Numbered from the stretch's first letter, positions 10,945 through 34,383 are shown. The stretch is DNA of 64,000 nucleotides from a bacterium (GCA_037200965.1 JBBCGK010000001.1:352001-416000); one strand, 5' to 3'. The notes: generated by a model from the letters alone, not told the origin. Numbers and translations are program-made.

Positions 10945-10962
10945 GGTCCCAGCGTAGCACGC

Positions 10963-12485: not shown

Positions 12486-15400
12486 TTAGGGCGCCGGTTC
12501 CGCTTCCGGACCAGGCGCGGGAGGCTCTTCCGGCGCCGGGCTTACGGGCGGCGCGATGACCGTAACGGCGCGCGAAGCGTGCGCTTCGTTTCCTGCCGCG
12601 TCCGCAACACGGTACGTGACCGTATAGCTTCCGGGTGTCGCGGTATCGACTGCGCCGTCTTTCGTGATGTCCGGCGTAAGGTCGCCGTCGCGATCGTCGG
12701 ACGCGCTTGCGCCCGGATCTTCCCAGACGGCCCCTTGAGCGAGATGCGTCTCGGCATCGCCCGCGAGCGTTATCACGGGCGCCAGCGTGTCGGGAGACGA
12801 CGCGCCCGCACCGCCATTGTTTCCTGTCGGAGGCGGCGGGATATCGGTTTCCGGGGTCCAATTCGCCGGGGAGGAGTCCCCCGCTTCGTCCTCTTCGCTT
12901 ATGACGGCAGCCGCGGTCGAGGTCGCGACCTGCCCTTTCGTCCCGACGATGAAGTAATCAAATGACACGTCGCTTTGCTGGGCTTTCTCGAGGCGTATGC
13001 GGAACGAGCCGTTCTTCTTGTCCGCGAGATACCATCCGCCGTTTACGGCTCCGGTAAAGGTCACGAATATTTTGTCCGACGGCGCGGCATACACGTTTTC
13101 GATTTCGACGGCCGTATTGCCCGCGAGGATCATGCCGGATCCCGCGGAGGAATTCCCCGCCGAATCCGCGGCCGCGACGAACCGGTCGGCAACGAGGGTG
13201 CCGAACTGCGCGATTCCCTCCCGGACGAACGCGCCGAAACCTTCGAGCGCCGACGCGAGCGTCGACGAGGCGAAAGTACCCGGAGCCGCATCCATGCCGA
13301 TCGAGCCGTCCTCGAGCCGTGCGATGCGGTCTTCGAGCGAATCCATGCGTGCGCCGATAGCCAGAAGCTCGGCGGAAATCGACTGCAGGCTTCCGAGGCT
13401 GTAGGTGGCGAGCTTGTACAGGTCGATGCCCGACGCGTCTTCCGTAAGCACCACTGACGGCAGGCTGGTGCTCGCGAAACCAAGGTTTGCCGCGACGGAC
13501 GCGAAGGATCCGGCCGGAAGCGCGAAGCCGTCGGCATATACCGTGCCCGAGATTCCGATATCGCCCGAGACAGAAAGCGCCCGGTTTGTCGCTCCGGTCC
13601 TGATGCCGATGTTCCCCGCCGCGTCGACGGCGAGCGCCGGGACGGTCGAGCTTGCGGCAGCGTTTCTGATAAAGCCGGTGCGTGCGTTGAGCGCGTTCAC
13701 CGCGGAAATAAGCGGCGAGACAAGTCCCGCGTAATTCACGGTGTAGTAGGTGCCGGTCACGCCGTTCAATTGCGTCTCAACGGTCCCGGTGAGCTGCGGG
13801 AACGCCTTCGCCACGTCCTGCGCGATGATGCCCACCTGCTGACCCTGGCTGAGCAACGGATCGCGCCAGTTATACGTTACGCCGCTTATGAGCGAGAGCT
13901 TCGAGAGCGCCTCTTCGCCCGTGATCGCCTCGATATTCTTCTTGAGGCGGGAGTCCGACGTACACGCCCCCGAACCGTTGATGACGCACGTACCGCCAGG
14001 ACCGCTGAATGTCGCGTTCCCGGCGTTGTCGACCTTGAAGAGCGTGGTCGTCGCGCTCGCGGTCGAAGAGCCGATGGCGAAGAGATTGTTGCCCGGATAG
14101 AGAGCGCCGTTGTTCGCATGCACCGCAAGGAGCGCGCCGGGCGTCGACGAGGCGATGCCGACTTTCCCGGCAAAGTAGTTCGTGTAGGCGTCGGCCTGAT
14201 AAATGGCGTAATTTCCGGAAGGAGCCGTGGCCGTGCCGAGCAGGAGTTCCGTGTTGTTCGTGCCGTTCGCAAGGCTCTCGACGTTGACGCCGATCGAGTT
14301 GGTGAGCGTGCCTGCGCCTATCGACGTATTTCGCTGCCAGAAGCCGCGGAAGTTCGTTATGAGGTTCCCGGTGTCTACCGAAGGGGCTTCGGAATGATAG
14401 TTGGAAGCATTGGTGGAAGTGGCGAGCGTGCCACTAACGGCGTTCTGGATCGTAAGACCGCTCATCTGATTCACTCCATAGCCGACGGAGGTATTTGAAA
14501 CGGTGATCCGGTTTCGGAGACCGCCGCCTTGCGCTCCGCCGGATACGTTATTGGCCAAGCCCGACCATACTACTTGCGTGTTAAGTCCTTGTATAGTTGC
14601 TGTCGCAGGTGTACTCGAGGCGTTCACCACCACAAAGAGACCGCGCATATTGATGTTTGCGCTCGTTGTTCCGACGAAGAGTGTGTCATTTGTGCCGGGC
14701 GCCGTGCCTTTCACGTTCGAAGTGCCGATGACCGAGTATGTGACAGCGCCACCATTGTCCGCATAGAGATTGCCGTGTACCTCGAGAGAGTTCGCGGGAG
14801 ACGTGGTGCCGATGCCGACATTGCCGTTCGCGAGTACCGTCATGAACGTACTTGTCGCCGTGCCGGCCGTCGTGGAAGCGATGGTAAACAGCGGGGTATT
14901 GGCCGGAGTGGAGACGGAGTTCGAGATGGAGAGGAGCGAATAGGGCGAAGTGGTACCGATGCCGACATTGCCCTGTACCAGGAGTCCGTTCGTCGGCGGC
15001 GCGATGCCGTAGCCGATATCGATGCCCGTGCCGCCAAGCATATGCAGGTTCCCGAGCGCGGATACTTGAAGCGCGGTCGTGGACGCAGTGGCCGTGGTGC
15101 TGCTTGCGATAACGAACAGCGGGATCGTACCGCCGCTTGCGCCGTTAACCGAAAGCCGCGCGAACGGACTCGTGCTGCCGATGGCGAAGTTGTTCGTCGC
15201 CACGTCGGCACGGGCTATCTCAACGTTGCTTTTGCCGTAAAGCTGGATGCTGTTTCCGTTCGAAGCATCAACCAAAAGTCGCAAAACACCACTCGAGGAG
15301 GAATTGGAGATGCCGAAGACGCTGTTGCTCGATCCGACCCATCGCGCATATGCCGTGCCGGAAGTGCCGTCGGTGCGTATAAAGTCTATGCCGTTGCTGT

Positions 15401-18400
15401 TGTTCCCCTGCTTCCCGACCTGGATGCTCCCGGCAACGCTTAAAATCGGCGAGCCCACTTGCGTGGTATAGGGAGCAGTCGTCGTACCGATCATCGTAAA
15501 GCCGCCTCCCGTTGCAAGATAGGTATTGCCCGTCGAAGTAAATTGCGTTGAAGATGCGTTAGCGCTGAATTGTTGTAGTCCGGTCCATGTATTGGGGTTC
15601 GCGACATTGAGCGAGGCGATGACCGCGCCGGTCGTCGGGGTGATAGTGAGCGTGCCGTCGACGTTCGAAACGGAAGTGACGCCGGTCGAGGAGGTCAGAT
15701 AGTCGGTGCCGGGCACCGCGTTTACGATATATCCGCCCGTTGACGCCTTCAGAATGCCCGAGTTGCCGGTGATGGCGAGATTGGGTATCGAGATCGGGCC
15801 CGCGAAGGTCGAAGTCGCCGACGTCGTGGCGATAAAGAACCCGGCGGTCGCGGAGTTACCAAGAAGCGACGCGCCTTCGATCGAAAGGCGCGCGCCGGGC
15901 GTACTCGTCCCCACCCCCACATTCCCGTTCAATATCGTCCTGGCAATGCCCGTGTTTCCGAGCGTGGCGGAGTTCGAGCCGTTGCCGACGGCGTTGTACC
16001 CGATGACGATCTCGTTCGCGCCGCCGGCGGCAAGCGGGAACGCGCCGTAGCCGAGGTAGGTGGAGTCGCTTGCGGTCTGGTTGGGGGTCGTCCCGTCGGC
16101 GATAAATCGGCCGGCTCCCATGCCGATGGCGGTGTTGTGGAATCCGCTGACGTTGGTCTGGAGCGCCGCGAGCCCGACGGCGGTGTTGTAGTAGCCGGTG
16201 GTGGTGAGGGCGAGCGCGCCCGCGCCGATCGCGGTGTTGTCGAGGCCGCTCGTGTTTGAGAACAGCGCGGAGTATCCGACCGCGGTGTTCGAGTCGCCTC
16301 CGGAATTGGCGGCAAGGGCGTTGGTGCCGATTCCCACGTTCCTGATCGCGGCAAAGAGGTGCCCCGGCAGGATGTTAGCCGGCGCCGCGGCGAGCGCACC
16401 CTGGCCGATGGCGATGTTGTCCGTAATGGTCGAGGTGGCGGACATCCACGCGGCGGCGGAAGACGCGCCAAGCGCGAGCGAGCTGTTCGTCGTGCTCGCG
16501 TAGAGGACGGTGTTCCCCGCCTGCTTGTATCCCGAATACTGGTCGGTGTTGACGAAGCCGGCGACGTCGAGCGGATAGGAGGGCGAGGCGTTCCCGATCC
16601 CGAGCCGCTTGTTCGTCTCATCCCAGAAGAAGTTCCGGGGGGCGGCGGACTGGGTGAGCTTCGTGCCGTCGGAGAAGACAACGCCGCCGTTGTAGAAGGT
16701 GGTGGTGCCGGTGCCGCCGTTTGGCACCGTGAGCATGCTGGCGAGGTTGAGGGTGTTTGCGGTGAGGGTGGTGCCGTCGAAGGTGAGGTTCGCGGAGTCG
16801 GTGAGGAGGCCCGCGGTGGTGGTATAGGGGACGCGGTTGGTCGTGAGATAGGTGTTGTACAGGCCGGAGGCGACGGAAAGCTGGGTGGTGGAGGCGTTGG
16901 GGAAAACGGAGGCGGTGGTGGTGGTCGAAGTAAAATAGGCGGCGACGGCCTGGCCGGCGACGGAGAGTTTCGCATAGGGGGAGGTGGTGCCGATGCCGAC
17001 GTTCCCGGCGTTCGTCACGTTAAGGAACATGGTCGAGGTGGTACCGAACCGGTTGGTCGAGGACGCGACCGCGAGGATAAAGGGCGTTATGGATCCGAAC
17101 GGATTCTGGACCGCGAGATTCGCGAAGGGGGTGGTGGTGCCGATGCCGACATTGCCTTCGGTGTAGTAGATGCTTTTGGTGGAGGTGGCGGAGTGCTGGA
17201 AGAAGGTCATCGCGCCGCCCGTGACGACGTTGGTCGCGGCGATGCGGCCCATGATCTGGTTGCCGTTCTGGTTGTAGTGGCCGAGGTCGTCCTCGATGTA
17301 GTTGAGGGAGGGATAATCGAGGTCGCTCGCGAAGACGATCCGCGTGTTGAAGTCGTTCGCGGCGACGTCTTCCTGCGCCGCGCGGACCTGCGACTGGCCG
17401 AGGTCGGACATGGTGAGGAGCGTGCCCGACCGGAAGATGTAGAACGGCATGTTCGCGCCGAAGCGGGCGCGATAGTTGGCGATCATGGTCTTGAGCGCGG
17501 CTTCGTAGCTTGCCTGGGAGACGCCCGGGGTGTTGTCGTTGATCGCCACGCCGTCCGTTCCTCCCTGGCCCCACAAGACGCCCTTGAACACCGGTGTATA
17601 GCCGGCCTGCCGGAAGGCGCCAAGCGCCGCGGTGGTGGTGCCGACGGACCCGCTGAAGAACTCTCCGGTCGTGTCCCAGGTGCCTTTGCAGTTGCCGTAG
17701 CAGGCTGCGGCGACCTGGGACGTCGAGCCGCGCGCGCCGTTGACGAACGCGACCCGGCGGCCGGTGGCGCGATAGTAGGTGAGGGCGAAGGATGCCCAGG
17801 CGCCGTCGTCGTTTGAGGTCCCGGCAAGGGAATCTTCGTTGAGAATCTGTCCGTGCCAGTACTGCATGACCTGGCCCAGGGGCGCGACGGGGGCGGTCTC
17901 GGCGTCCCCGGGGCCGAGCATGTTCGACTGCCCCGCGACGAGGAACACATCGACCTGGTTCCCGAGGCCGAGGTTGAACCAGCCGTCCGTGATGGGATTG
18001 CCGGCTGCGGTCGTGGTGCCGATGCCGGCTTTCGCATAGAGGTATGTGCCGTCGAAGGCGAAGGTGCCGGGGCTTGCGGGGGTGGTGGTGGGGGTGGAAC
18101 CAAGAGCAAGGAAACCGCCCACGGACAGCGTTGCGGATGGCGTGGTGCTGCCGATACCGAGCCTGCCATTAGCGTTATCCCAGAAGAGCGCCGACGAGGA
18201 TGTATTGGGCGCTTGCGTCAATTTCGTACCGTCGCTGAAGACGACACCCCCGTTATAAAAGGTGGTAGTGCCGGTGCCGCCAAAAGCTGCCGAAAGGGTC
18301 GAGGTCGCGGACACAAGACCATTGATAGCCTGAAGCGGACCCGTGAGCGAACCAATGGTAAGCGATGGCGTCGTGACGGTGCCGGTCGCGGAGATGGTGG

Positions 18401-21400
18401 TGGTGCCGGTCGCGCCGACCGCGAGCGTGTTTGCGGAGAAGTTGGTGGTGGATGCGTTTTGGATATTGAACTGGCTTGGAATGGAAAGCGTGATGTCGCC
18501 GGTTGAAGCGGAAGCGGTGATTTGATTCGGAGTGCCCGTTAGTGAAAGGACTCCGTTGTTGCTGATCGTCACGGCGCCGGTCGCGCCCGAAAGCCCGATG
18601 CCGAGATTCCCTTGCAAAAGCGACGTGACGCCGGTGTTGGTGATGGTAAGCCCGCTTCCGATGACCGACTGCCCTGCCGTGACCGAGATGCCGGTACCGT
18701 TTGAGACCGTGCCGGTCGCAACGTTCGCAAAGGTATTCGGTCCCGAGAAGTACGGTATGTTCCCAACCACTGCCGGGGTGGAAGTCGAAAGGCCGTTGAA
18801 GCTTATGGTATTGATCAAACGAACGAGCGGCCACGCAAAGGCAAGAGGCACTTCTGGCGTTGCGCCGGAAGAGGCCGCAGTGATGAGACCCTTTCCGTTC
18901 ACTGTGATGCTGGCGTTTGTAAAGGAGCCGACGTTGGCATTCACCGTCGCGAGCGTCGCGGCTGCGGAGCCCGGGCCGCTTGCAGTGACGTCCCCGGTGA
19001 GCGCGGTAATGTAATTCCCTGCCGCCTGCTTTCCGTTGAACGTACTCCAGTCGGTCGATGAGAGGAGCCCGCGATTGCTTGCGGATGCGGTCGGAAGATT
19101 GAAGGTGACCGTATTGCCCGAACCCGTGATCGAGAAGTCGGTTCCGCTCGTTGACGAGGCGAGCGTGAGTGCGCCGGTGATCGCGGAACCGAACTGCGGC
19201 GTGACCGAGGTGATGCCGCTCGCGGAGGTGAGATAGTCGGTTCCCGCAACCGCAGGGACCACATAGCCTCCTGCGCCGGTCTTGAGAAGATTCCCCGAGG
19301 CGATGTTGGTGATGGCGAGGTTGAGAGTCGAGAGCGGGCCTGCGAACGTACTGGTTGCGCTGGTCGTCGCGAGAAAGAACCCGGCACTCGCGAAATTGCC
19401 AAGAAGCGATGCCCCCTCGACGGCAAGGCGCGCGCCCGGGGTCGTCGTGCCGATCCCCACATTCCCCGTATTTTTGATTACCAGCCGCTGAACCGGCGTT
19501 GCCGATCCGTCCGGGGTCGTGAAGAATGAGAGGCGTCCCGGAGCGTCGCCGCCGGTAGCCGTTGCCGCGTCCGCTTCCGCAAGTATCTGCGCGTAGAGCT
19601 GCGACGAACCCGTGCTGTCGACGCCATAGAAGGCAACGGTGCCCAGATCGTCGTTATTGCTTATCTCCGTGCCGGAACCGCGGTATTTCTGGAAGCTTTG
19701 GACCGGACCCGAACTGTTTGCCGCCTGATAATAGAGGCTCTGCATGCTGCTATTTGTCGTCGAATACAGGCGCTGCAGGTATCCGCCCGCACCGACCGTG
19801 CCGGAACTGCCGACGGTCATATCGCCGACAACCGCGAGCGTCGCGGCGGGAACGACGGTGCCGATGCCGACGCTCCCGCCAAGAGTCGCGAAATACGCGC
19901 TTGAAGTTGCCGTCAGCTGCGACGTGGAGGCGTTGCCGAAGAATTGCTGGAGCTGCGACCAGTTATTCGCGGTAGTCGTGCCAAACGCAAGCGACACATT
20001 GTTCACCAAACGGACGAGAGGATAGGAGAACGTAAGCGGGTTTTCGAAATCGGTGCCGGGAGCGGCGTTCGTTATGTATCCTCCGGCCGATGCCTTGAGA
20101 AGACCTGAGTTCCCGGTAATCGCGAGGTTCGGTATAGAAAGCGGGCCGGCAAAGGTGGAAGTCGCGGAGGTGGTTGCGACGAAGAAGCCGGCAGTGGCCG
20201 AATTGCCGAGGAGCGACGCGCCCTCGACGGAAAGCCTCGCCCCCGGACTCGTCGTACCGATGCCGATGTTCCCTCCCGATACCGCAGAGCCGGTGCCGGT
20301 CACGCCGGTGCCGTAGATGAGGTTGCCGATGTTGAGCTGTCCCGAGAGCGTCGCGGACGGGAGCGAGATGTTGGTGCCGATGAGGATGTTCTGGCTGCCG
20401 GTGGTGAGGTTCGCGACGGCGGTCGAGGAGGTGGCGGCGCCGATGAGGATGTTGCCGGCGCCGGTCGTGACGTTGTACCCGGCCTGGGAGCCGAGGAAGG
20501 TGTTGAAGTCGGAGGCGTCGCCCAGGGAGTGGCCCGTGCGATAGCCGATATAGACGCCGTTCCTGTTGTTGAAGGAGCTGCCGGTATCAAGGACGAGGTT
20601 GCCGTTGCCGGCTTCGTACCCGATCGCGACGTTGCCGCCTATGGTCGACGAGGCGAATTCGAGGGCGGCCTTGCCGATCGCGACGTTGTTCGGGCTGTAG
20701 TAGCTCGAATAGAGGGCGCCGTCGCCGACGGAGACGTTCGAGCTGCCGCTGATGTTGTTCCACATGCTCTTGTACCCGACGGCGGTGTTGTAGAAGCCGT
20801 TGGCGGTGAAGCGGAGCGCCTTGTACCCGACGGCGGTGTTCTCCTCGCCGGTGTTTGCGGCGCCCGAGACCGTCGTGGTGCCGCCAAGCGCGTAGTATCC
20901 GAAGGCGGCGTTGTACGAGCCGGTGGTGTATTCGCGCATGGCGCCCTCGCCCGCGGCGGTGTTGTACGAGCCGGCGGTGTTGGACAGGAGGGTTTGATAG
21001 CCGAGGGCGGTGTTGTAGAAGCCGTTGTTGTTCGCGTTGAGGGCGTACCGGCCGAAGGCGGTGCTGCGGACGTCGCTTGCGGTTGTGGTCGCGTCGCCCC
21101 CGGCATTGAGGCCGAAGATGGTGGTTTCATTCGTCGTCGACGCATACCCAAGCAGGCGGTTGGCGATTTTGTATCCCGAGTATTGATCCGTATTGATGAA
21201 GCCGGCGACATCAAGGGGATTCGTGGGCGACACCGTATTGATGCCAAGCCTTCCGGCCCCGTTATTCCAGAAGAGGGCGCTTGCGGAGGTGTTGGGTGCC
21301 TGCGTGAGCTTCGTGCCGTCGGAGAAGACAACGCCGCCATTGTAGAAGGTGGTGGTCGCGGTGCCGCCGGAGGAAAGAGGCAGGGCGTTCGTAAGAGCAA

Positions 21401-24400
21401 GCGTGTTTGCGGTAAGCGTGGTGCCATTAAAGGTGAGGTTCGCGGAGTCGGTCAGAAGGCCGTTGGTTGTCGTGTATGGGACGCGGTTCGTGGTGAGATA
21501 GGTGTTGTACAGGCCGGAGGCGACGGAGGCGAGCGTGGTCGAGGCGTTCGGGAAAGTGGAGGCAATCGTGGTAGTGGCGGTGAAGAAGCCTGCGATCGCT
21601 TGGTTTCCAAGCGACGAGGAACCTTCGACGGAGAGGCGGTAGGCGGGAGTGGTGGAAGCTATACCGACGAAACCGGAGTTCATAATGACGAGTGCGCGCG
21701 TGCCGCTGCCGCCGGATGTCGCACCGTTGACATCGAACTCAAAACCAGGAACTACCGCGCTGGTATCTTGGTTCGTGAAATAGAATACTTTGGAACCGAA
21801 TCCTTGAATCTGATGCGCGCTGCCGTTCGACTGGTTGATGGAGATATACTGGCCCGGGGCTGCATTGCGAGTGACGCGCAAACCTTCGTTTGCCGCAGTT
21901 GCGTTGATGTCAAGCGGGGCGCTTGGCGTAAAGGTGCGAATACCTACGTATCCGTTGCCGTTCGCGCTGCCGACATACAGCGACGGAGTCGAGCTTCCGG
22001 CGGCGCCGACGACGAATGCGGGAGTCGTGGACCCCATGCCGACCGAGAGCTGAGCGAATGGCGAGGAAGTGCCGATGCCGGCATTGCCTTGTACCAACAA
22101 CCCGCTCACGGGAGGCGCAATACCGTAGCCGATGTCTATGCCGGCGCCCGCGAGCATATGCAGATTCCCAAGAGAGCTAACAACGAGCGCGGTCGAGGTG
22201 GCAAAACCCGCGGTCGAGGTCGAGAGAGCGAAGACGGGAGTTGTGCCGCCTGCGGTACCCGCAAGGGAGAGTTTCGCGTACGGAGAGGTAGTGCCGATGC
22301 CGAGTCTGCTGTTCGTCTTATCGAAGTAGAGTCCTCCCTGAGCGGATGCCTGCGAGAGTGTGCCGAGACCGGAGTCGTAGAACGTGACGCCGCCGTTGTA
22401 GAAGGTGGTGGTGCCGGTGCCGCCGCGGTCGACGGTGAGCGTGCCGGTGGTGTCGGAAAGTACGATGCCAAGCGAAGACGTGGCGGCAGCCGCGAGCGCG
22501 CCGTTGTTCCCGTATATAATCCCCGAAAGCGTTCCGAGGACCGGGTTGTTCGTAAACGTTTGTGTGCCGCCCCAGGTATTGCTTGTCGTGGTGCCAAATG
22601 CAAGCGATACGTTGTTCGTCAAGCGGACCAGCGGGTACGAGAATGTAAGAGGATTTTCGAAATCGGTGCCGGGGACTGCATGCTGGAAGTAACCGCCAGC
22701 GCCGACCTTCACGAGGCCGCTTGCCAAGTCGGTGACGGCAAGATTGAGCGTCGAGAGGGGCCCCGCGAAGGTCGAAGTCGCGCTCGTGGTCGCGATGAAG
22801 AAGCCGGCAGTCGCGTAATTGCCGAGCAGTGAGTGGCCTTCGACGGAGAGGCGCGCGCCGGGCGTCGTCGTCCCGATGCCCACATTGTTATTGAAATATG
22901 ATTTGCCGTGCACCTCGAAGATGCTCACGAGCGAGGAAGTCGCACTGTCGCCAATGATGACAACATCTGACGTGTCGGTTGGATAGATCGCGAGACTGTC
23001 CGACGTGGTCGCCCATGCGCCCGCCCCGCCCCCTCCTCCAGTCGTCTGGTCGACTCCCCACTGCGGCAATCCGCCGCCCGACACCTTAAGCACCTGGCCG
23101 GAAACACCGAGGGGCAGTGCCGTGAGATCGCCATTGCCGTCGGCATAAAGCAGGTCGCCCGGGTTGTATGACGCGATGCCTGTGCCGCCGTTTGCCTGGC
23201 CGAGCACGTTGGTTACGTCCGGGCTTCCAAGATCGACAGAGCCGGTTGAAAGAACGCCGGCGGTCGCGCGCAGGATACCGGTCAGCGCAGTATTTACAGT
23301 ACCCAGATTCGCGAGGGTCGTTATGTTCGGGAGCGTCGTGGTCGCGGTAAGCCGGTTATCGAAGAGCGTATTACTCCAATACTTGTTGACGGATCCTTGC
23401 GCTAGGGCATCGGTCGTCGTGGCGCTGAAGAAGTTGTAAAAGGGTACGCCGAAATTAGTAAGGTGGGTGGCGTCGAGATAGTAGCTTCCCTCCTGCCCGT
23501 CAAACGTGCCGGTCCAGTTGCCGGAGGCATCGGCAACGTAGTCGGTGCCAGGAACGGCATTTGCTACATAGCCGCCGGCTGCTGCCTTGAGAAGGCCGTT
23601 GTTCCCGGTAATCGCAAGCTGCGAAACGGAAAGCGGACCGGCGAAGGTAGAGGTCGCGCTCGTAGTGGCGGTGTAGTAATCGGCGACGACTTGGCCGGCG
23701 ACGGACAGTTTGGCGTACGGCGATGTGGTGCCGATACCGACATTTCCTCCGGTTGTCGCAAGATAGGTATTGCCGGTAGAGGTGAACTGCGTCGAGCTTG
23801 CGCCTGCATTGAACTGCTGGAGCGCAGTCCAGGTGTTGGGGTTCGCGAGGTTGATTCCGAGATTCCCGCCGGAAACCTGGAGCGTCGCATCATTATTTAA
23901 CGAAAGTGCGTATGGCGATGAGCCGAGGACGACCGGATCGGATGAGGAGAACGACAAAGCGCCGGAAGTGGTGATCGTTGTGGTCGCTGCGCTTGAAAGC
24001 GCGCCATTGTTTCCATATACAAGGCCTGAAAGCGCGCCGAGGATCGGACTATTCGTAAAGGTTTGTGTGCCGCCCCAGGTATTGCTCGTCGTGGTACCGA
24101 AGGCAAGCGACACATTGTTCGCCGAACGCACGAGCGGATAGGAAAACGTGAGCGGGTTTTCGAAGTCGGTGCCCGGTACTGCAACGGAAAGGACGCCCGC
24201 CGCGGCTTTCAAAACTCCCGTGAGTGAGGTCGACACGGTACCGAGGTTCGCGAGGGTCGTGATGTTCGGGAGCGTCGTGGTCGCGGTAAGCCGGTTATCG
24301 AAGAGCGTATTACTCCAGTATTTGTTAGTGGCACCTTCGGCAAGCGCGTCGGTCGTGGTCGCATGGAAGTAGGTGTAGAAAGAGGCGTCGAAAGAAGAGG

Positions 24401-26999
24401 CGTCGAATTTGGCGTTAAGCGCATTTTGCAGATCAGTCTGATCCGAGAGAATCCCGGTAATGCTCCCCCACACCGCACTGTTGATGCCAAGCGACGAGGT
24501 CGCGACATATTCCCAATTCCCGTTCGCATCGGAAAACAAGAGCTTGTTGGCGGTCGGAACGGTCGAGGTACCGGTGCCCCCGCGGTTGATAGCGAGCGTT
24601 CCGGTCGTATCGGAAAGCGCGATGCCAAGCGACGAGGTCGCAAGCGCGGCCGGAACGGCGCTTCCTCCCGTTTGGTTTGCGAGGACCGAGTTTGCCGCGA
24701 TCGGCGCGAGGCCGATCTGCACGTTCGTGCCGCCGACTTGGTATCCGAGCGCGCCAGACGAGACGGCAAGACCGTTCGTGACGCCAAGCGTCGAAGTTGC
24801 CGCCGTCGCGAGCGTGCCGTTATTACCGTAGACGAGACCGGAGAGGGCGCCAAGGATGGGAGCATTGGTGAACGTCTGGACAGGGCCCCAGGTATTCGCG
24901 GTCGTTGTGCCAAATGCGAGCGTGATGTTGTTAACGGCCCGCACGAGCGGATATGCGAAGGTGAGAGGATTCTCGAAATCAACGCCCGGTACCGCCGCCG
25001 AAAGAGCTCCTGCGGTTGCCTTTAAGATTCCTGTAAGCGACGTCTTGATCGTACCGAGGTTCGCGAGCGTTGTGATGTTCGGGAGTGTCGTGGTCGCGGA
25101 GAGGCGATTATCAAACCGCGTATTCGTCCAGTACAAATTGTTCGTCCCCTCATCAAGTCCGTCGGTCGTCGTCGCGTACCAATCGGCGAGCGAGAGTTTC
25201 GCATCAAGGGCGCTTTGCAAGTCGGTCTGGTTCGAAAGCGTGCCAATGATGTTCCCCCATGAAGGATTGCCGCCCGCAGCGATCCCGAGCGACGAGGTCG
25301 CGACAAGATCGTACCCGCCCGCGCCGTCGCCAAGAAGGACCTGGCCGTATGCGGGCGCACTCGCGATACCCGTACCTCCGTTGTCTATATCGAGTATGCC
25401 GCTCAGCGTGAGCGTACCGCTTGAAGTGACCGGACCGCCGGCAAATGAGAATCCGGTCGTTCCACCGGAAGCGTCGACGGAAGTTACCGACCCCGAACCT
25501 CCCCCCGATTGCACGACGGTTGTACCGCCCCCGCGCGCCCCGCTTCGCACCGCGGAGTCGATGTTCTGGTACAGCAACGCTCGCAAACCGCCGATCGCGG
25601 CGTCCACATAGGCAATTGATGCGCCGCCTTCCGGAGCAATGTATTGATTCGTCACGTACGTGGGACCTGTCTGATGGATGACCAGGGGAACATCTACCGC
25701 CCCCGTGCTTGTCGCGCTTGTAACGACATTTCCGGATGACACATAGGCGACTTGAGGCAGAATAACGGTGGGCGGGGTCAGAATATAAGCGATTGTTTCC
25801 GCTGTCCGATCAAAGAGGCTGCGGATAGTCTCGTAGGTAAAAAGCGCAATGTATTCTGGCTCCGTAAGCGGCGCGCCAGCATACGCGGCCGCGGGGAGGG
25901 CCTGCTCGCTCCCGGAAGCTCCAAAGACCCGGGGAATGAAGGATTCGATACGCATCGAAGCTCCGGTATCAAAAGCGAGTGCGGTATTTTTTGCTCCGAT
26001 CATCCGCTCGCCAATCGCGACTTCCTTTTTCGCTACATACGCAACTACGCGGGGAGACGCGTCGCTCCAAGCGTAGAGCGATCGCTCATAAGCGCCGAGA
26101 AGCGCGGGCAGCGCATTGCCGGTTCGCATGCCCAACATGTCTCCAAGCGCGTACACCGAACGGAAAATCGCGCGCGGTATTTCAAGTGCCGCGGTCAGAG
26201 ATGCGGGAGTGGAAGTTCGATCCGAAACGGACAGGCGCGGAGAAAAGTTCCCTTTCGTTTCTTCCGCAAACGCTTCCGGCGGCGTCCACTCCAATGCAAC
26301 GCTTGTCCACGGCGAATCTTGCGCTGGCACAATTTGCATCTGAGTCTCCCGTGCGGCGATCGTCGCGTTCGTAAGCGGAAGTAACGCTCCGTGTGCAAGG
26401 TCGTCGGTCGACTGCGCGATCGACTCTTTGAGCGCAACGCGCGTCGCGGACGTGCGGCTCTCCGTTTCAAGCGCATGCCTTGCGATCGAGGCGATGGTGG
26501 CGGCGCTCGCTGAGCGTACGACACCCGCGGATTCCGTTACCATCGCGAGAGAATGATCTGCAATCGATCCAAGAACATCGGCACGAGCAAGTGCCGCGCC
26601 GCCCGCCACTATCGCAACGGCAACCGCGAGGGAAACGGCATGGCCTGAAAATGCATATGAAAAGTATGGAGCTGGTACTGCCCGTGGCGCTTTTGACGCT
26701 GCTTCGGAGCTTGCGGGTACCGCGTCGGGTGTTGTCGGCGAAGCCGGCTTTTTTACAAACTCCGCATACTCCTTTCCGCGCGACTCAGCCAACGCGCGAG
26801 CGCGGGCCGCATTGCGGTCGGCTTGGATTTTTATAAAACGTTCAAGCGATGAACGCTCAACGAGCCACGTGCGCCCAACTCGCACTCCATCGATAGACTT
26901 TCCTTTGCAGAGTCTCGCAATATAGTCAGGACTATATCCGGATAAATCAGCGGCGACTTTCGTCGATATCAAGTTTTCTTTAAGGAGGTAAGGATCCAT
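12486..26999 (-). CDS. giant membrane-anchored surface protein (4837 aa): cytoplasmic HTH + TM + tail-fibre/YadA-like repeats + SGNH esterase + peptidase-S74 chaperone domain + DUF5011-like Ig domain
   Basis: Uninterrupted 14.5-kb ORF with an ATG at 26999. Residues 10-57 match the excisionase/MerR HTH_17 pattern, followed by a K/R-rich linker and one hydrophobic helix (FSGHAVSLAVAVAIVAGGAALA). The remainder is Gly/Thr/Ser/Ala-rich with many recurring modules (GIGTTSPYAKLSV..., ...FENPLTFSYPLVR..., NTAVGY-type head repeats). Defined domains are listed separately. Confidence 0.85.
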   Translation of the reverse strand: MDPYLLKENLISTKVAADLSGYSPDYIARLCKGKSIDGVRVGRTWLVERSSLERFIKIQADRNAARARALAESRGKEYAEFVKKPASPTTPDAVPASSEAASKAPRAVPAPYFSYAFSGHAVSLAVAVAIVAGGAALARADVLGSIADHSLAMVTESAGVVRSASAATIASIARHALETESRTSATRVALKESIAQSTDDLAHGALLPLTNATIAARETQMQIVPAQDSPWTSVALEWTPPEAFAEETKGNFSPRLSVSDRTSTPASLTAALEIPRAIFRSVYALGDMLGMRTGNALPALLGAYERSLYAWSDASPRVVAYVAKKEVAIGERMIGAKNTALAFDTGASMRIESFIPRVFGASGSEQALPAAAYAGAPLTEPEYIALFTYETIRSLFDRTAETIAYILTPPTVILPQVAYVSSGNVVTSATSTGAVDVPLVIHQTGPTYVTNQYIAPEGGASIAYVDAAIGGLRALLYQNIDSAVRSGARGGGTTVVQSGGGSGSVTSVDASGGTTGFSFAGGPVTSSGTLTLSGILDIDNGGTGIASAPAYGQVLLGDGAGGYDLVATSSLGIAAGGNPSWGNIIGTLSNQTDLQSALDAKLSLADWYATTTDGLDEGTNNLYWTNTRFDNRLSATTTLPNITTLANLGTIKTSLTGILKATAGALSAAVPGVDFENPLTFAYPLVRAVNNITLAFGTTTANTWGPVQTFTNAPILGALSGLVYGNNGTLATAATSTLGVTNGLAVSSGALGYQVGGTNVQIGLAPIAANSVLANQTGGSAVPAALATSSLGIALSDTTGTLAINRGGTGTSTVPTANKLLFSDANGNWEYVATSSLGINSAVWGSITGILSDQTDLQNALNAKFDASSFDASFYTYFHATTTDALAEGATNKYWSNTLFDNRLTATTTLPNITTLANLGTVSTSLTGVLKAAAGVLSVAVPGTDFENPLTFSYPLVRSANNVSLAFGTTTSNTWGGTQTFTNSPILGALSGLVYGNNGALSSAATTTITTSGALSFSSSDPVVLGSSPYALSLNNDATLQVSGGNLGINLANPNTWTALQQFNAGASSTQFTSTGNTYLATTGGNVGIGTTSPYAKLSVAGQVVADYYTATTSATSTFAGPLSVSQLAITGNNGLLKAAAGGYVANAVPGTDYVADASGNWTGTFDGQEGSYYLDATHLTNFGVPFYNFFSATTTDALAQGSVNKYWSNTLFDNRLTATTTLPNITTLANLGTVNTALTGILRATAGVLSTGSVDLGSPDVTNVLGQANGGTGIASYNPGDLLYADGNGDLTALPLGVSGQVLKVSGGGLPQWGVDQTTGGGGGAGAWATTSDSLAIYPTDTSDVVIIGDSATSSLVSIFEVHGKSYFNNNVGIGTTTPGARLSVEGHSLLGNYATAGFFIATTSATSTFAGPLSTLNLAVTDLASGLVKVGAGGYFQHAVPGTDFENPLTFSYPLVRLTNNVSLAFGTTTSNTWGGTQTFTNNPVLGTLSGIIYGNNGALAAAATSSLGIVLSDTTGTLTVDRGGTGTTTFYNGGVTFYDSGLGTLSQASAQGGLYFDKTNSRLGIGTTSPYAKLSLAGTAGGTTPVFALSTSTAGFATSTALVVSSLGNLHMLAGAGIDIGYGIAPPVSGLLVQGNAGIGTSSPFAQLSVGMGSTTPAFVVGAAGSSTPSLYVGSANGNGYVGIRTFTPSAPLDINATAANEGLRVTRNAAPGQYISINQSNGSAHQIQGFGSKVFYFTNQDTSAVVPGFEFDVNGATSGGSGTRALVIMNSGFVGIASTTPAYRLSVEGSSSLGNQAIAGFFTATTTIASTFPNASTTLASVASGLYNTYLTTNRVPYTTTNGLLTDSANLTFNGTTLTANTLALTNALPLSSGGTATTTFYNGGVVFSDGTKLTQAPNTSASALFWNNGAGRLGINTVSPTNPLDVAGFINTDQYSGYKIANRLLGYASTTNETTIFGLNAGGDATTTASDVRSTAFGRYALNANNNGFYNTALGYQTLLSNTAGSYNTAAGEGAMREYTTGSYNAAFGYYALGGTTTVSGAANTGEENTAVGYKALRFTANGFYNTAVGYKSMWNNISGSSNVSVGDGALYSSYYSPNNVAIGKAALEFASSTIGGNVAIGYEAGNGNLVLDTGSSFNNRNGVYIGYRTGHSLGDASDFNTFLGSQAGYNVTTGAGNILIGAATSSTAVANLTTGSQNILIGTNISLPSATLSGQLNIGNLIYGTGVTGTGSAVSGGNIGIGTTSPGARLSVEGASLLGNSATAGFFVATTSATSTFAGPLSIPNLAITGNSGLLKASAGGYITNAAPGTDFENPLTFSYPLVRLVNNVSLAFGTTTANNWSQLQQFFGNASTSQLTATSSAYFATLGGSVGIGTVVPAATLAVVGDMTVGSSGTVGAGGYLQRLYSTTNSSMQSLYYQAANSSGPVQSFQKYRGSGTEISNNDDLGTVAFYGVDSTGSSQLYAQILAEADAATATGGDAPGRLSFFTTPDGSATPVQRLVIKNTGNVGIGTTTPGARLAVEGASLLGNFASAGFFLATTSATSTFAGPLSTLNLAITNIASGNLLKTGAGGYVVPAVAGTDYLTSASGITSVTPQFGSAITGALTLASSTSGTDFSITGSGNTVTFNLPTASASNRGLLSSTDWSTFNGKQAAGNYITALTGDVTASGPGSAAATLATVNANVGSFTNASITVNGKGLITAASSGATPEVPLAFAWPLVRLINTISFNGLSTSTPAVVGNIPYFSGPNTFANVATGTVSNGTGISVTAGQSVIGSGLTITNTGVTSLLQGNLGIGLSGATGAVTISNNGVLSLTGTPNQITASASTGDITLSIPSQFNIQNASTTNFSANTLAVGATGTTTISATGTVTTPSLTIGSLTGPLQAINGLVSATSTLSAAFGGTGTTTFYNGGVVFSDGTKLTQAPNTSSSALFWDNANGRLGIGSTTPSATLSVGGFLALGSTPTTTPASPGTFAFDGTYLYAKAGIGTTTAAGNPITDGWFNLGLGNQVDVFLVAGQSNMLGPGDAETAPVAPLGQVMQYWHGQILNEDSLAGTSNDDGAWASFALTYYRATGRRVAFVNGARGSTSQVAAACYGNCKGTWDTTGEFFSGSVGTTTAALGAFRQAGYTPVFKGVLWGQGGTDGVAINDNTPGVSQASYEAALKTMIANYRARFGANMPFYIFRSGTLLTMSDLGQSQVRAAQEDVAANDFNTRIVFASDLDYPSLNYIEDDLGHYNQNGNQIMGRIAATNVVTGGAMTFFQHSATSTKSIYYTEGNVGIGTTTPFANLAVQNPFGSITPFILAVASSTNRFGTTSTMFLNVTNAGNVGIGTTSPYAKLSVAGQAVAAYFTSTTTTASVFPNASTTQLSVASGLYNTYLTTNRVPYTTTAGLLTDSANLTFDGTTLTANTLNLASMLTVPNGGTGTTTFYNGGVVFSDGTKLTQSAAPRNFFWDETNKRLGIGNASPSYPLDVAGFVNTDQYSGYKQAGNTVLYASTTNSSLALGASSAAAWMSATSTITDNIAIGQGALAAAPANILPGHLFAAIRNVGIGTNALAANSGGDSNTAVGYSALFSNTSGLDNTAIGAGALALTTTGYYNTAVGLAALQTNVSGFHNTAIGMGAGRFIADGTTPNQTASDSTYLGYGAFPLAAGGANEIVIGYNAVGNGSNSATLGNTGIARTILNGNVGVGTSTPGARLSIEGASLLGNSATAGFFIATTSATSTFAGPISIPNLAITGNSGILKASTGGYIVNAVPGTDYLTSSTGVTSVSNVDGTLTITPTTGAVIASLNVANPNTWTGLQQFSANASSTQFTSTGNTYLATGGGFTMIGTTTAPYTTQVGSPILSVAGSIQVGKQGNNSNGIDFIRTDGTSGTAYARWVGSSNSVFGISNSSSSGVLRLLVDASNGNSIQLYGKSNVEIARADVATNNFAIGSTSPFARLSVNGASGGTIPLFVIASSTTATASTTALQVSALGNLHMLGGTGIDIGYGIAPPTNGLLVQGNVGIGTTSPYSLLSISNSVSTPANTPLFTIASTTAGTATSTFMTVLANGNVGIGTTSPANSLEVHGNLYADNGGAVTYSVIGTSNVKGTAPGTNDTLFVGTTSANINMRGLFVVVNASSTPATATIQGLNTQVVWSGLANNVSGGAQGGGLRNRITVSNTSVGYGVNQMSGLTIQNAVSGTLATSTNASNYHSEAPSVDTGNLITNFRGFWQRNTSIGAGTLTNSIGVNVESLANGTNNTELLLGTATAPSGNYAIYQADAYTNYFAGKVGIASSTPGALLAVHANNGALYPGNNLFAIGSSTASATTTLFKVDNAGNATFSGPGGTCVINGSGACTSDSRLKKNIEAITGEEALSKLSLISGVTYNWRDPLLSQGQQVGIIAQDVAKAFPQLTGTVETQLNGVTGTYYTVNYAGLVSPLISAVNALNARTGFIRNAAASSTVPALAVDAAGNIGIRTGATNRALSVSGDIGISGTVYADGFALPAGSFASVAANLGFASTSLPSVVLTEDASGIDLYKLATYSLGSLQSISAELLAIGARMDSLEDRIARLEDGSIGMDAAPGTFASSTLASALEGFGAFVREGIAQFGTLVADRFVAAADSAGNSSAGSGMILAGNTAVEIENVYAAPSDKIFVTFTGAVNGGWYLADKKNGSFRIRLEKAQQSDVSFDYFIVGTKGQVATSTAAAVISEEDEAGDSSPANWTPETDIPPPPTGNNGGAGASSPDTLAPVITLAGDAETHLAQGAVWEDPGASASDDRDGDLTPDITKDGAVDTATPGSYTVTYRVADAAGNEAHASRAVTVIAPPVSPAPEEPPAPGPEAEPAP
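12550..12810 (-). other. C-terminal DUF5011/Ig-like domain followed by a Pro-rich tail
   Basis: LAPVITLAGDAETHLAQGAVWEDPGASASDDRDGDLTPDITKDGAVDTATPGSYTVTYRVADAAGNEAHASRAVTV resembles DUF5011-type bacterial Ig-like domains. Ends ...APPVSPAPEEPPAPGPEAEPAP. Confidence 0.5.
13680..13995 (-). other. peptidase S74 intramolecular-chaperone (auto-processing) domain of the giant protein
   Basis: CTSDSRLKKNIEAITGEEALSKLSLISGVTYNWRD...QQVGIIAQDVAKAFPQLT...YTVNYAGLVSPLISAVNALNAR matches the SDxRLKxNI...GfIAQ...Y..L consensus of phage tail-spike/endosialidase chaperone domains. Confidence 0.7.
17223..17954 (-). other. embedded SGNH-hydrolase / sialate-O-acetylesterase (SASA)-like domain in the giant protein
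   Basis: FLVAGQSNMLGPGD (GQSNM nucleophile block I), VLWGQGGTDG (block III-like) and DDLGHY (DxxH catalytic block V), in the order and spacing of SASA/CE-family esterases. Confidence 0.65.
26820..26999 (-). other. N-terminal excisionase/MerR-type helix-turn-helix module of the giant protein
   Basis: LISTKVAADLSGYSPDYIARLCKGKSIDGVRVGRTWLVERSSLERFI fits the HTH_17 pattern (helix, GYS turn, recognition helix, then the wing GVRVGRxW). Homologous to the N-terminus of the 27330-28169 product. Confidence 0.6.
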
Positions 27000-27329
27000 G
27001 TCGGATAACCGAATTAACTACAGTTTATATGGACTTTCCGGAATAAACTCCAAATTGTATGTGGATAAGGAAAATAAGGTTTTCTGAATTACCGTATCCG
27101 CAATCACTAACAAAATGGTCGGGGCAAGTTGACGATAAATTGAGCACGCGAAGCATGGTTGGTATGAAAATTGTACCGACTTCTGCAACGAAAATTGCGT
27201 ATTTTAGAGGCCGAAAAAAATATAACCTTCGCCTACAGCGTAGTTTTGTAAGTTTTCTGCAATTAAATCACCTTAAACAACCGCATCAAACCAGTAATGC
27301 AACCTCGCTTATACGAGATATAATACCCT
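27000..27329. promoter_or_regulatory. 330-bp AT-rich (about 37% GC) non-coding region immediately upstream of the giant gene
   Basis: No ORF of 60 aa or more. Composition contrasts sharply with flanking 60-65% GC coding DNA. Likely promoter/regulatory region; individual promoter boxes not resolved. Confidence 0.45.
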
Positions 27330-28169
27330 TTATTTGTTAGTCTTTTCGTACTGCTCTGCTCCGTTTAGAAACTGTATGAGGTTCGCCTGTAAGCCATCGT
27401 TAGCTGCTATAAAATCGAGTTTGCCTGTACCGATTATCGCTATCAGTACCGCAATACCGGCTGCGGTTAGCATGAGCGAGCTCAGTACATAATGCCCTTT
27501 CTTAACCTCCTTACGCTTTGCTGGAGCAAGCTCGTGTCGTGTTTCCGAAACAATGTATGTGTCCACGGGCTCAAAATCGTTTCCTGAGGAGATTTGCTCT
27601 TCGTTCCGAGAGATATGTAAGGTTATCGATGTAGCCTCTTCTATAGGCTCTGGCGCGGCTACAGGCCCTTCTTCAAAGGTTTCCGGTTCTGAAATAGGGA
27701 CGTTTTGCGATTCCTGCGGCCCGACTCGATTAATAAACCAGTCTTGCCAGGCTGACTGTATGTCCTGAAGCGCGCTTTGAGTCTCTGCTGCGGGAATTTC
27801 ACGTACTTCTGTCTGCTCTGATTCTTCTGAAGAGAGGAGGTTTACGCCGGGACTTTCGGTTGGAACTTCAAAAATACTCGGTACTTCCTCACTACTATAG
27901 CGAGGTGAGCCCCAAGCGGGACTTGCAGCTTTTTCCAAACCGCTTTGTTCCTCCTTAGGTCCTTGTGCACCACTTGAAACCTCTGCCTGCTTCCCAAAAC
28001 GATGCTCGCGAATGGCGGATTCAAGAACGTACCAGCTGCGTCCAACAAGCGTTGCCGTCACCCTCCCTTCACGGGCAAGTTGACCGACATAATCCTTGGC
28101 ATATCCCGTAATTTCCGACGCTCGCTTAGACGAGATAAACGTCTGATTTCCTATAAGTAACTCATTCAT
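27330..28169 (-). CDS. HTH-domain membrane protein (279 aa): N-terminal excisionase/MerR-type HTH, acidic disordered linker, C-terminal TM helix; paralogous to the giant-protein N-terminus
   Basis: ATG at 28169 gives MNELLIGNQTFISSKRASEITGYAKDYVGQLAREGRVTATLVGRSWYVLESAIREH. This shares ISxKxA...GYxxDY...L...G...VGRxWxV with the giant protein. TM at GHYVLSSLMLTAAGIAVLIAIIGTG. About 50% GC, lower than its neighbours. Confidence 0.7.
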   Translation of the reverse strand: MNELLIGNQTFISSKRASEITGYAKDYVGQLAREGRVTATLVGRSWYVLESAIREHRFGKQAEVSSGAQGPKEEQSGLEKAASPAWGSPRYSSEEVPSIFEVPTESPGVNLLSSEESEQTEVREIPAAETQSALQDIQSAWQDWFINRVGPQESQNVPISEPETFEEGPVAAPEPIEEATSITLHISRNEEQISSGNDFEPVDTYIVSETRHELAPAKRKEVKKGHYVLSSLMLTAAGIAVLIAIIGTGKLDFIAANDGLQANLIQFLNGAEQYEKTNK

Positions 28170-28257
28170 GCACTTAGTATATAGGTATCTCGTCCCGTAT
28201 AGAAGAGGTTGTACACAAGCACCGAAAAAGCTGAAAATCCATCCGAATTTAGAGTCT

Positions 28258-29679: not shown

Positions 29680-29695
29680 TAACCCCAATCTAGCA

Positions 29696-30676: not shown

Positions 30677-30700
30677 ATGGATTCACCCTAACACACTCTT

Positions 30701-30728
30701 TTCACCCACGCTCGTATCATGGTATAAT
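30701..30728 (+). promoter_or_regulatory. candidate promoter for mntA/hepT: -35 TTCACC, 16-bp spacer, extended -10 TGgTATAAT; start codon 7 nt downstream (leaderless)
   Basis: tgg-TATAAT at 30720-30728; ATG at 30735. Confidence 0.4.
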
Positions 30729-30734
30729 GTATCT

Positions 30735-34248: not shown

Positions 34249-34383
34249 GGTGTTTCGTAAATTAATTTCTTGCTCATCGACCCATCCACGCGAGAAATAA
34301 TTCACGCATGAATGTTTCTAATGAACAGTATCGCGCGTAATAACTTTTTGTGTGAGCGAAAAAACAAAAGTGTGGATAACTTT

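Follow-up and report, generated by a model that had tools for sequence, protein, structure and literature searches.

A giant patescibacterial surface protein with a predicted membrane-tethered helix-turn-helix domain and its conserved, secA-linked small paralogue

Background

Transmembrane transcription regulators (TTRs), in which a DNA-binding domain and at least one transmembrane (TM) region are joined in one protein, form a widespread class whose commonest members are single-pass forms (Demey et al. 2023, PMC10269533). We describe here a giant surface protein of 4837 residues, designated G, and its small upstream paralogue, S, which are encoded in a 64,000-nucleotide stretch of bacterial DNA (GCA_037200965.1, JBBCGK010000001.1:352001-416000; hereafter the window, to whose first letter all positions refer). 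Both proteins combine a helix-turn-helix (HTH) domain of the HTH_17 type with one TM helix, and by the broad definition both formally qualify as TTRs. HTH_17 and the Patescibacteria are absent from the main text of the TTR survey (PMC10269533). A literature search for HTH_17 (PF12728) in a transmembrane or patescibacterial context found nothing relevant, which agrees with an initial annotation of the window, made from the DNA alone, that knew of no functional description of such a protein; the generic combination of a DNA-binding domain with a TM region is the widespread class named above.

Among the TTRs, ToxR, TcpP and CadC resemble G in having an N-terminal cytoplasmic domain of DNA-binding type, a single TM segment and an extracytoplasmic C-terminal part. 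Their fold and dimensions differ: ToxR-like proteins possess an OmpR/PhoB winged helix and sensor domains of 100-300 aa, whereas G has an HTH_17 domain of the Xis/MerR type and a 4700-aa fibre with enzyme and chaperone domains. G gave no Pfam match to Trans_reg_C and lies outside the narrow ToxR/CadC family. RodZ is likewise bitopic: its N-terminus forms a cytoplasmic HTH, one TM helix follows, and the C-terminal part is extracytoplasmic. The HTH of RodZ, however, is of the XRE type (HTH_25) and binds MreB, not DNA. The likeness to RodZ is architectural only, and neither G nor S matched RodZ, HTH_25 or DUF4115 in Pfam.

By profile, the closest solved relative of the G HTH module is TraN (AM32) of the type IV secretion system of the Enterococcus plasmid pIP501 (PDB 4p0y, 4pm3 and 6g1t), which was the sole significant match of the sequence profile to the PDB (E 9e-6). 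TraN is built from tandem excisionase-type HTH units, as are many members of the family described below, but unlike G it is a small, soluble, cytoplasmic binder of double-stranded DNA without a TM region or ectodomain. The Xis proteins of Pukovnik (4j2n) and Tn916, RdfS, BldC and RacA have the same fold as G, namely a strand, two helices and a beta-hairpin wing. These Xis/MerR-like binders and RacA are all soluble, and none has the conserved basic helix and TM segment of G. RacA is a functional analogue for the tethering of DNA to the envelope, although it reaches the membrane indirectly via DivIVA.

The outer part of G recalls phage tail fibres (T4 gp34-type) and endosialidase tailspikes, which also carry a Peptidase_S74 domain with a Ser...Lys motif after a long repetitive fibre, and its embedded sugar esterase is reminiscent of receptor-destroying tailspikes. 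Unlike tail fibres, G is encoded at a chromosomal housekeeping locus, has an N-terminal TM anchor, continues for ~430 residues past the chaperone domain, and lacks both a PHROG match and a close relative in IMG/VR. G is not a ToxR-type regulator, a YadA-type adhesin, a RodZ or a virion tail fibre. Very large membrane-associated proteins that are proposed to mediate attachment to host or prey, and whose genes are often fragmented in assemblies, have been described in Vampirococcus lugosii (PMC8080830) and in the Omnitrophota (bioRxiv 10.1101/2023.11.21.568195). The Omnitrophota giants have N-terminal signal peptides with C39 or S8 peptidase domains (bioRxiv 10.1101/2023.11.21.568195), and neither of the terms 'HTH' and 'helix-turn-helix' occurs in the main text of either report.

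The finding reported here is a bitopic, TTR-like HTH protein that carries a giant ectodomain resembling tail fibres, and it is broader than one odd protein in that it concerns a lineage-wide, syntenic two-gene system. Bacteria belonging to the candidate phyla radiation (CPR; Patescibacteria) account for much of the diversity of bacteria; they spend their lives attached to other cells, and very few regulators can be recognised in them. To our knowledge, host recognition and surface control in these bacteria are largely unknown. One of the biggest CPR surface proteins now proves to belong to a very large uncharacterised family with a DNA-binding-type domain at the inner membrane face.

Results

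G is encoded on the minus strand at 12486..26999 and begins with ATG, as first annotated. Alanine, threonine, glycine and serine constitute 49% of its residues, and Pfam recognised four domains in it, namely HTH_17, SASA, Peptidase_S74 and Bact_surface_Ig-like. Three independent public assemblies (NCBI GCA_015655515.1 and two Logan runs), which were found via exact copies of S, contain ungapped DNA of 99.97-100% identity across the junctions between the HTH, TM helix, stalk and repeats of G. Their match to the window starts upstream of the G start and extends over at least 454, 904 and 1890 codons, respectively. All three are short-read assemblies in which G is cut at contig ends, and the C-terminal 1319 residues lie on a separate contig of GCA_015655515.1. 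Because the same ungapped sequence occurs in three independent assemblies, the fusion is genuine: the ORF (open reading frame) is intact and the joining of the HTH to the body of G is no assembly artefact. The initial annotation had held that an early frameshift or stop on resequencing would speak against its reading of G, and all three assemblies read through this region. Although giant repetitive genes do break assemblies, with contig ends inside the gene in 19 of 24 related loci, a chimeric ORF arising from misassembly, or from a wrong start that fuses a small HTH gene to a fibre gene, is effectively refuted by these identical junctions, by the presence of this fusion in each of the 24 related genome loci, at more distant loci and in genes of 2369-7214 aa that are complete, and by DNA conservation that reaches the G ATG.

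The N-terminus of G opens with a predicted cytoplasmic winged HTH at residues 11-56 (26832..26969, minus strand, as are all features of G and S given below). HTH_17 (PF12728; gathering score 27) was scored at 27.7 bits on the isolated 196-aa N-terminus and at 30.0 bits on an 86-aa fragment; on full-length G it reached 22.2 bits and stayed under the cut-off. All of the 18 aligned homologous N-termini matched HTH_17, with a best E-value of 1.3e-12, and TIGR01764 gave 23.6 bits, under its cut-off of 28.8. An AlphaFold2 (AF2) model built from the 18-sequence alignment placed strands (E) and helices (H) at E10-12, H13-20, H24-32, E38-41 and E44-48, followed by a long helix at 49-83 and a further helix at 116-139. 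The predicted local distance difference test score (pLDDT) was 96-98 for residues 11-80. When the model was compared with the PDB using Foldseek, the top matches were all DNA binders, comprising Pukovnik Xis (4j2n; template-modelling score normalised to target 0.73-0.75), TraN of pIP501, GlnR/TnrA, Tn916 Xis, RacA, RdfS and BldC. Residues 10-83 of G are thus confidently modelled as an Xis/MerR-type winged HTH with a long basic helix, and the excisionase/MerR-type fold that had been proposed at the outset is borne out by Pfam on fragments, by the homologues, by AF2 and by Foldseek.

The long basic helix spans residues 49-83 (26751..26855), is continuous with the HTH and is conserved in the alignment with the motif F..Q..RK..A..L...R..EY. 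It is followed by a Pro/Ala/Ser-rich disordered cytoplasmic linker at residues 84-115 (26655..26750; AF2 pLDDT 56-59), the length of which varies among homologues. The initial annotation had described a Lys/Arg-rich linker here; the basic stretch is present, but it is a conserved alpha-helix, and the disordered segment after it has a different composition. A single TM helix occupies residues 116-139 (26583..26654), with a Gly-Gly pair in its outer half. The Kyte-Doolittle 19-residue maximum of 2.03 falls at residues 120-138, in agreement with the AF2 helix, which is confidently modelled, and with the one hydrophobic helix first noted, and the same scan found no second convincing TM segment in G. 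The cytoplasmic region is net basic (19 K+R vs 13 D+E), and the basic residues of the helix and wing that are typical of HTH_17 are kept. With the conserved wing Arg/Trp and the conserved recognition helix, this net charge is indirect evidence for DNA binding, and the HTH of G may bind double-stranded DNA.

Hydropathy revealed no N-terminal hydrophobic signal sequence in G. Those repeat-region relatives in which the HTH is absent begin with classical Sec signal peptides, and because these relatives carry Sec signals instead, the repeats of G are expected to be extracellular. Across 25 homologues, the 20 residues before the TM helix contain a mean of 2.6 K+R vs 1.0 D+E and the 20 residues after it 1.3 vs 1.4, and the whole region before the TM helix is net basic in 24 of the 25. 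These charges and the Sec-signal relatives point to a type II, N-in/C-out topology for G, with the HTH in the cytoplasm, the remainder outside and no N-terminal signal peptide, as the initial annotation had it.

A survey of related genomes, which had been proposed together with that annotation, placed the HTH-TM module at the head of giant proteins within a large family. Residues 434-1200 of G have 305 relatives, and those with names come nearly all from metagenome-assembled genomes of Paceibacterota, Kaiserbacteria or Minisyncoccia. The architecture is hidden in public annotation as a result of short-read truncation: most repeat-region relatives are annotated 'partial', and fragments are named 'helix-turn-helix domain-containing protein, partial' or 'hypothetical protein'. 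The same HTH opens 24 of the 120 listed repeat-region relatives, in which the TM helix then lies at residues 81-204, and five of those 24 contain a tandem of two HTH-helix units. When a profile covering the HTH and helix was scored against 1.84 billion cluster representatives, 14,714 clusters matched at E<=1e-3, of which 4,510 reached E<=1e-10; the named members are all Patescibacteria. A TM-like segment follows the HTH in 121 of 146 new top matches, the others being mostly short and probably fragments. The ectodomains of those 121 measure <100 aa in 66 proteins, 100-500 aa in 39, 500-2000 aa in six and >=2000 aa in ten, and the range within the family runs from under 100 to over 7000 aa, with giants of 7214, 5533, 5279, 3767, 3451, 3382 and 3277 aa among the profile matches. 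The order HTH...S74...Ig-like is common to the full-length giants P0143, P0131, P0181 and P0125. Other ectodomain modules are Gp34_trimer with an Ig-like domain in P0135 and LVIVD in P0134 and P0144.

Related loci were sought by a genome scan with a 6-sequence subset alignment, the 18-sequence alignment being too divergent. The five of the 24 related loci (L001-L024) in which no contig end falls inside G comprise three complete genes (2369, 909 and 502 aa) and two that exceed 3410 aa within the fetched flank. Short-read assemblies systematically truncate HTH-giant genes, and protein sets hold mostly 'partial' fragments of them. In a further locus (L029, 9479-14802), two bAvd and reverse-transcriptase gene sets, which are components of diversity-generating retroelements, lie downstream of P0090, a complete 1133-aa HTH-TM member whose outer domain may be hypermutated or diversified and ligand-binding.

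Conservation within the first 800 residues of G is highest in the HTH. Among syntenic orthologues, residues 1-80 are ~42-51% identical to those of G, the TM helix ~36% and the linker ~11-12%, while the stalk and first repeats are mostly 6-32% identical, with one block at 40%. The HTH of S is very strongly conserved across the 24 loci. In 370 HTH domains of the family, conservation is 94-99% at A16, D25, Y26, L30, R32 and W45 and 80-84% at G21, Y22, G34 and G42. The second helix, DY[IV]xxLxRxG, which is the recognition helix in this fold, is nearly fixed across differing ectodomains and between S and G. The recognition helix varies in ordinary transcription-factor families. Because it is near-invariant throughout this family, the alignments suggest that the HTH domains address one shared ligand.

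The S-G pair, its fixed position next to secA and the conserved phased promoter elements were not part of the initial annotation, and the greatest novelty of the findings lies in the pair and its cis-elements. S (27330..28169, minus strand) is a protein of 279 aa encoded directly upstream of G and identified with the family profile (54.4 bits, E 1.7e-15); Pfam alone misses it. After its HTH at about residues 10-57 come a disordered linker rich in acidic residues (D+E 32, K+R 12), a short run of basic character, a TM helix near residues 228-250 and a tail of ~30 aa, which measures 25-37 aa across loci. Residue-for-residue copies of S occur in the three other assemblies mentioned above, and a homologue search with its HTH returned only 23 short fragments.

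In the window and in each of the 24 related loci, the gene immediately upstream of the giant gene encodes S or its equivalent. The order Wzy_C/TPR-(murB)-secA-obg-gatB-S-G is kept in 24 of 24, as far upstream as each locus extends, and SecA is 68-77% identical to the window protein across these loci. More distant lineages keep this order with slight changes: in three loci secA and gatB have no obg between them, and in one lineage of this kind S has two HTH units; another distant locus runs obg-gatB-S and then a 7214-aa G. One lineage, whose G has 5279 aa, contains additional genes that separate secA from obg, and its downstream genes gap, rpiB, rpe, split transketolase (tkt) and pfkB also match the window. 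S and G are a conserved gene pair at a fixed place downstream of secA-obg-gatB, and the G gene is chromosomal, surrounded by conserved housekeeping genes and part of neither a prophage nor a virion module. One homologue lies in another gene context without S, and paralogous loci therefore exist.

The S-G intergenic region (27000..27329, minus strand) is AT-rich, with a GC content of 0.38 vs 0.59 for the window. This spacer is long and AT-rich in every locus, at 330-758 bp and a GC content of 0.27-0.55 vs 0.46-0.67 for the loci as a whole. An exact TTATCCACA, which is the DnaA-box consensus 9-mer, begins 69 nt upstream of the G ATG (27060..27068, minus strand). The distance from its start to the ATG is 68-70 nt in 20 loci; in five loci it is 78-81 nt and thereby longer by one helical turn. 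TTATCCACA is conserved upstream of G together with TATCCGAC. A second TTATCC element is contained in TTCGGTTATCCGAC, which abuts the G start codon (27000..27013, minus strand) and corresponds to TTCGGnTATCCGAC at the ATG across loci. TTCGGTTATCCGAC is kept in >20 loci, and its 3' half, ATCCGAC, is almost invariant. No Shine-Dalgarno sequence precedes the G ATG. An RNA hairpin, TCGG-TTAT-CCGA, before the G ATG was considered and rejected, as its 5' half varies without compensation while its 3' half is fixed.

The only other exact TTATCCACA in the 64-kb window lies in the murB-secA spacer (34371..34379, minus strand), and its position there is kept in all related loci that include the region. 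Within 320 kb of loci, almost all copies of the box, the TTATCCCCA variant included, are found at the G-upstream or the secA-upstream position. In a non-syntenic locus (L028), TTATCCACA opens the 485-bp spacer upstream of an HTH-giant gene. DnaA is the obvious candidate for the binder of the TTATCC elements and the HTH proteins are an interesting candidate. TTATCCACA and TATCCGAC, whose phase is conserved, are candidate operators, and G and S may regulate transcription from the membrane. A replication origin in the S-G spacer was rejected: there is a single DnaA-box-like site, and no dnaA or dnaN was present among the genes scanned. Rfam gave no match in 26900-34500, a region that includes the S-G and murB-secA spacers, and a scan with the sigma-70 consensus found no promoter.

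Two further non-coding features were observed in this region. The murB-secA spacer (34072-34383, minus strand) contains a strongly conserved non-coding block made up of TTATCCACA, TCACACAAAA, GCGCGATAAT, TAGAAACGTTTG and GGGTCGAC; gene calling places a 33-aa gene in the spacer of one related locus (L025). At the S gene, a conserved GAGAcGAGATA...TATACT ends 7-9 nt before the ATG in the window (~28170-28190, minus strand) and in L001-L024, which suggests a leaderless or near-leaderless S mRNA.

Beyond the TM helix, G continues with a juxtamembrane stalk (residues 140-500, 25500..26582), which has no Pfam match and is poorly conserved: identity within blocks of 20 residues is 6-22%, apart from one block that reaches 40%. 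Fibre repeat region 1 (residues 501-3015, 17955..25499) and fibre repeat region 2 (residues 3259-4347, 13959..17225) are defined by recurring motifs, which across residues 501-4347 include GGTG, ATTTD[AG]L, LPNITTLANLG, ENPLTF and fifteen of the N[VI]GIGT type. The repeat map was built from motif positions only, and self-BLAST of G showed no off-diagonal blocks.

Between the two repeat regions lies a SASA carbohydrate esterase domain (PF03629; residues 3016-3258, 17226..17954), which we tentatively assign to the SGNH type. It scored 42.3 bits vs a cut-off of 24.8, covered profile positions 2-224 of 226, and contains GQSNM at 3023-3027, with the catalytic-serine motif GQSN, and LGHYN at 3239-3243; on these motifs it is a predicted sugar O-acetyl esterase. 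Repeat region 2 is followed by a Peptidase_S74 intramolecular chaperone domain (residues 4348-4403, 13791..13958), which scored 49 bits vs a cut-off of 22 and covered profile positions 1-56 of 58. The domain begins SDSRLKKNI and is opened by a Ser-x4-Lys motif (S4348-D-S-R-L-K4353), which has the same spacing as the dyad through which endosialidase chaperone domains cleave themselves. If this domain acts as in tail fibres, the fibre would trimerise and residues 4348-4837 would be cut off. A post-chaperone region (residues 4404-4742, 12774..13790), in which Pfam on the isolated fragment found nothing, leads to a Bact_surface_Ig-like domain (residues 4743-4814, 12558..12773) that scored 78.8 bits vs a cut-off of 27 and resembles bacillolysin 2kpn (E 1.9e-8).

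The esterase, peptidase-S74 and Ig-like domains had all been named in the initial annotation and all exceed their Pfam cut-offs. The YadA-head-like repeats also claimed there were rejected: no YadA_head or Hep_Hag match was obtained with whole G or with two 'NTA.G' fragments, the only hit being UspA1_rep at E 0.28, and G has no Pfam match to YadA_anchor. One public relative is labelled 'trimeric autotransporter adhesin' by IMG, which is a label only. Pfam on the isolated stalk, the two 'NTA.G' repeat blocks and the post-S74 region gave nothing significant. By tblastn, the segment around S74 is weakly similar to annotated tail-fibre genes in 247 phage records, with 24-36% identity and E-values of 4e-6 to 5e-4 among the matches listed. 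A recent phage or prophage origin of G was dropped after IMG/VR scans returned no relatives.

Discussion

We propose that G is a tethered fibre whose HTH is held at the membrane and probably binds DNA, with G and S acting as regulators or as DNA-membrane tethers; for this picture as a whole we estimate a probability of roughly one half. On this proposal G would be a type II-anchored giant surface fibre of a CPR bacterium of the Paceibacteria/Kaiserbacteria type. Outside the cell there would be ~4700 residues of tail-fibre-like repeats with an embedded SASA sugar O-acetyl esterase and an Ig-like domain, and the S74 chaperone would probably drive trimerisation and then cut itself off. The likeliest task of the fibre would be to bind and modify (deacetylate) a host-cell surface. 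On the cytoplasmic side, the Xis/TraN-type winged HTH and basic helix would stay tethered to the membrane and bind one family-wide ligand, most probably DNA, for which the phased TTATCC elements at the G promoter and upstream of secA are candidate sites. As transmembrane transcription regulators or DNA-membrane tethers, G and S could link both the fibre locus and its expression with the membrane and with Sec export, without the release of a soluble factor.

A more far-reaching version, in which a lineage-wide, vertically inherited S and G system wires surface fibres to the chromosome through HTH binding at the TTATCC elements of the G and secA promoters, is doubtful. If true, it would mean that fibre synthesis, Sec export capacity and possibly host contact are coupled at the membrane without a soluble transcription factor. 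The isolated 83-residue domain, a 70-bp promoter fragment and the S-G pair provide handles for study, and the findings touch on how contact with a host is sensed, how fibres are anchored and how genes are controlled in organisms that are difficult to grow. The initial annotation had likened the outline of G to Notch and ToxR. The bitopic HTH-TM-ectodomain plan does follow that outline, but the fold is not of the ToxR type and release is not needed; membrane-tethered DNA-binding proteins are common and can act without it, so that the arrangement is less exotic than 'Notch-like' implies.

Several observations count against the proposed picture. Foldseek gave weak E-values (>=0.01), which is unsurprising for so small a domain (~50 residues). 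In an AF2 model of a natural tandem-HTH relative both units fold well, but their packing against each other is predicted without confidence (predicted template-modelling score 0.37). RodZ and MreB set a precedent for protein binding by the HTH of a bitopic protein. TTATCCACA is a textbook DnaA box, and the link from the HTH to TTATCC is only hypothetical. An A-x-A site lies directly after the TM helix in the G of the window (ALA/RAD, the slash marking the possible cleavage point), where signal peptidase could cut. As regards the fibre, S74 is not the last domain of G, since ~430 residues, the Ig-like domain included, come after it. G had no match in PHROGs at E<=1e-5, and neither the HTH profile nor the C-terminal 637 aa found close relatives in IMG/VR. 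The label 'tail-fibre-like' draws on S74, on Gp34_trimer in one relative and on the weak tblastn matches.

The foremost alternative is that the HTH-helix units form a RodZ-like protein adaptor, binding not DNA but each other or a conserved partner in the cytoplasm, for example SecA, the signal recognition particle (SRP)/FtsY or a cytoskeletal or division protein, and thereby organise the export, placement or mechanical anchoring of the fibre. A near-invariant 'recognition' surface over thousands of proteins fits a single protein partner equally well, and the conserved pairing of G with S and their adjacency to secA are also in keeping with it. The acidic linker of S could dock on the basic helix of G, two HTH-helix units are fused in tandem in nature, and it is established that the cytoplasmic HTH of RodZ binds a protein. 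Against these points, the structural neighbours of the domain and TraN, its only relative in the PDB at the sequence level, are all binders of double-stranded DNA, the basic residues typical of HTH_17 are kept within a net basic cytoplasmic region, and the tandem model shows no confident packing of one unit on the other. We consider a protein adaptor possible but unlikely.

We lean away from both functional hypotheses of the initial annotation. The first was that the HTH is a contact-sensing transcription factor, with binding or tension at the fibre triggering cleavage in or near the TM helix and the freed HTH diffusing to an operator, as in Notch, SREBP or RseA. The architecture is compatible with such regulated intramembrane proteolysis, and there are conserved candidate operators at the G promoter. 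Gly-Gly, Gly-Thr or Thr-Gly pairs, which could weaken the helix, are common in the outer half of the family's TM helices; they equally fit helix-helix packing. However, no gene for a site-2 (M50), rhomboid or site-1 protease was present among the Pfam-scanned genes of the 64-kb window or the conserved neighbourhood, and no other sign of release was seen. The same HTH also heads proteins with ectodomains of 25-37 aa, which leave little to sense with, and an invariant recognition helix would put all paralogues on the same operator, which is unusual for signal-specific factors. Transmembrane regulators can act unreleased (PMC10269533). We consider proteolytic release of the HTH of G improbable.

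The second hypothesis was that the HTH has been co-opted as an anchor or export module for giant proteins. It is weakened by the 30-aa ectodomain of S and by the ectodomains of most family members, which are <500 aa. In its extended form, the 139 N-terminal residues would be a long signal peptide in which the HTH slows or targets export, signal peptidase I would cut after ALA138, and the fibre would be unanchored. The A-x-A site of G would allow this, and similar motifs occur in some relatives (TLA/RAD, ASA/AP and VSA/AP). Some relatives have ordinary cleavable signal peptides, and the locus is linked to secA. On the other hand, A-x-A is missing in many homologues, for example VVV/SR, LIN/PE and ITN/QN, and because the motif is not conserved across the family, a stable signal anchor in G is more likely than a cleaved signal. 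The hydrophobic segment has the length of a TM helix (24 residues), and purifying selection on the HTH is stronger than on the ectodomain. The HTH is also found on proteins with almost no passenger, and a mere aid to export would explain neither observation. An export module of this kind seems to us as improbable as proteolytic release.

Other genes in the window

A HepT-like/nucleotidyltransferase (MNT) toxin-antitoxin pair lies on the opposite strand in the secA-obg spacer at about 30700-31500 of the window, corresponding to 2793-3435 of L035/L036, and is outside the conserved synteny. Small prepilin-type (N_methyl) genes are found among the pentose-phosphate genes downstream of G (10619-10960, minus strand) and likewise in a distant relative (L032, 23923-24432 and 26564-27070).

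The window contains a second giant ORF of 2669 aa (47547-55556, minus strand). Inspection of its translation indicated YD/RHS-type repeats and an N-terminal signal-like helix, and it has no HTH module. Directly downstream of this RHS-like gene, at about 46000-47500, lies a 2-kb island with a GC content of 0.405 vs ~0.60 elsewhere, whose small ORFs (46974..47309 and 46336..46869, both on the minus strand) may be immunity or orphan-toxin cassettes of foreign origin. A transposase gene with an integrase core (rve) and HTH_Tnp_1, which we take to be IS3-like, is located at 58330-59232 on the plus strand.

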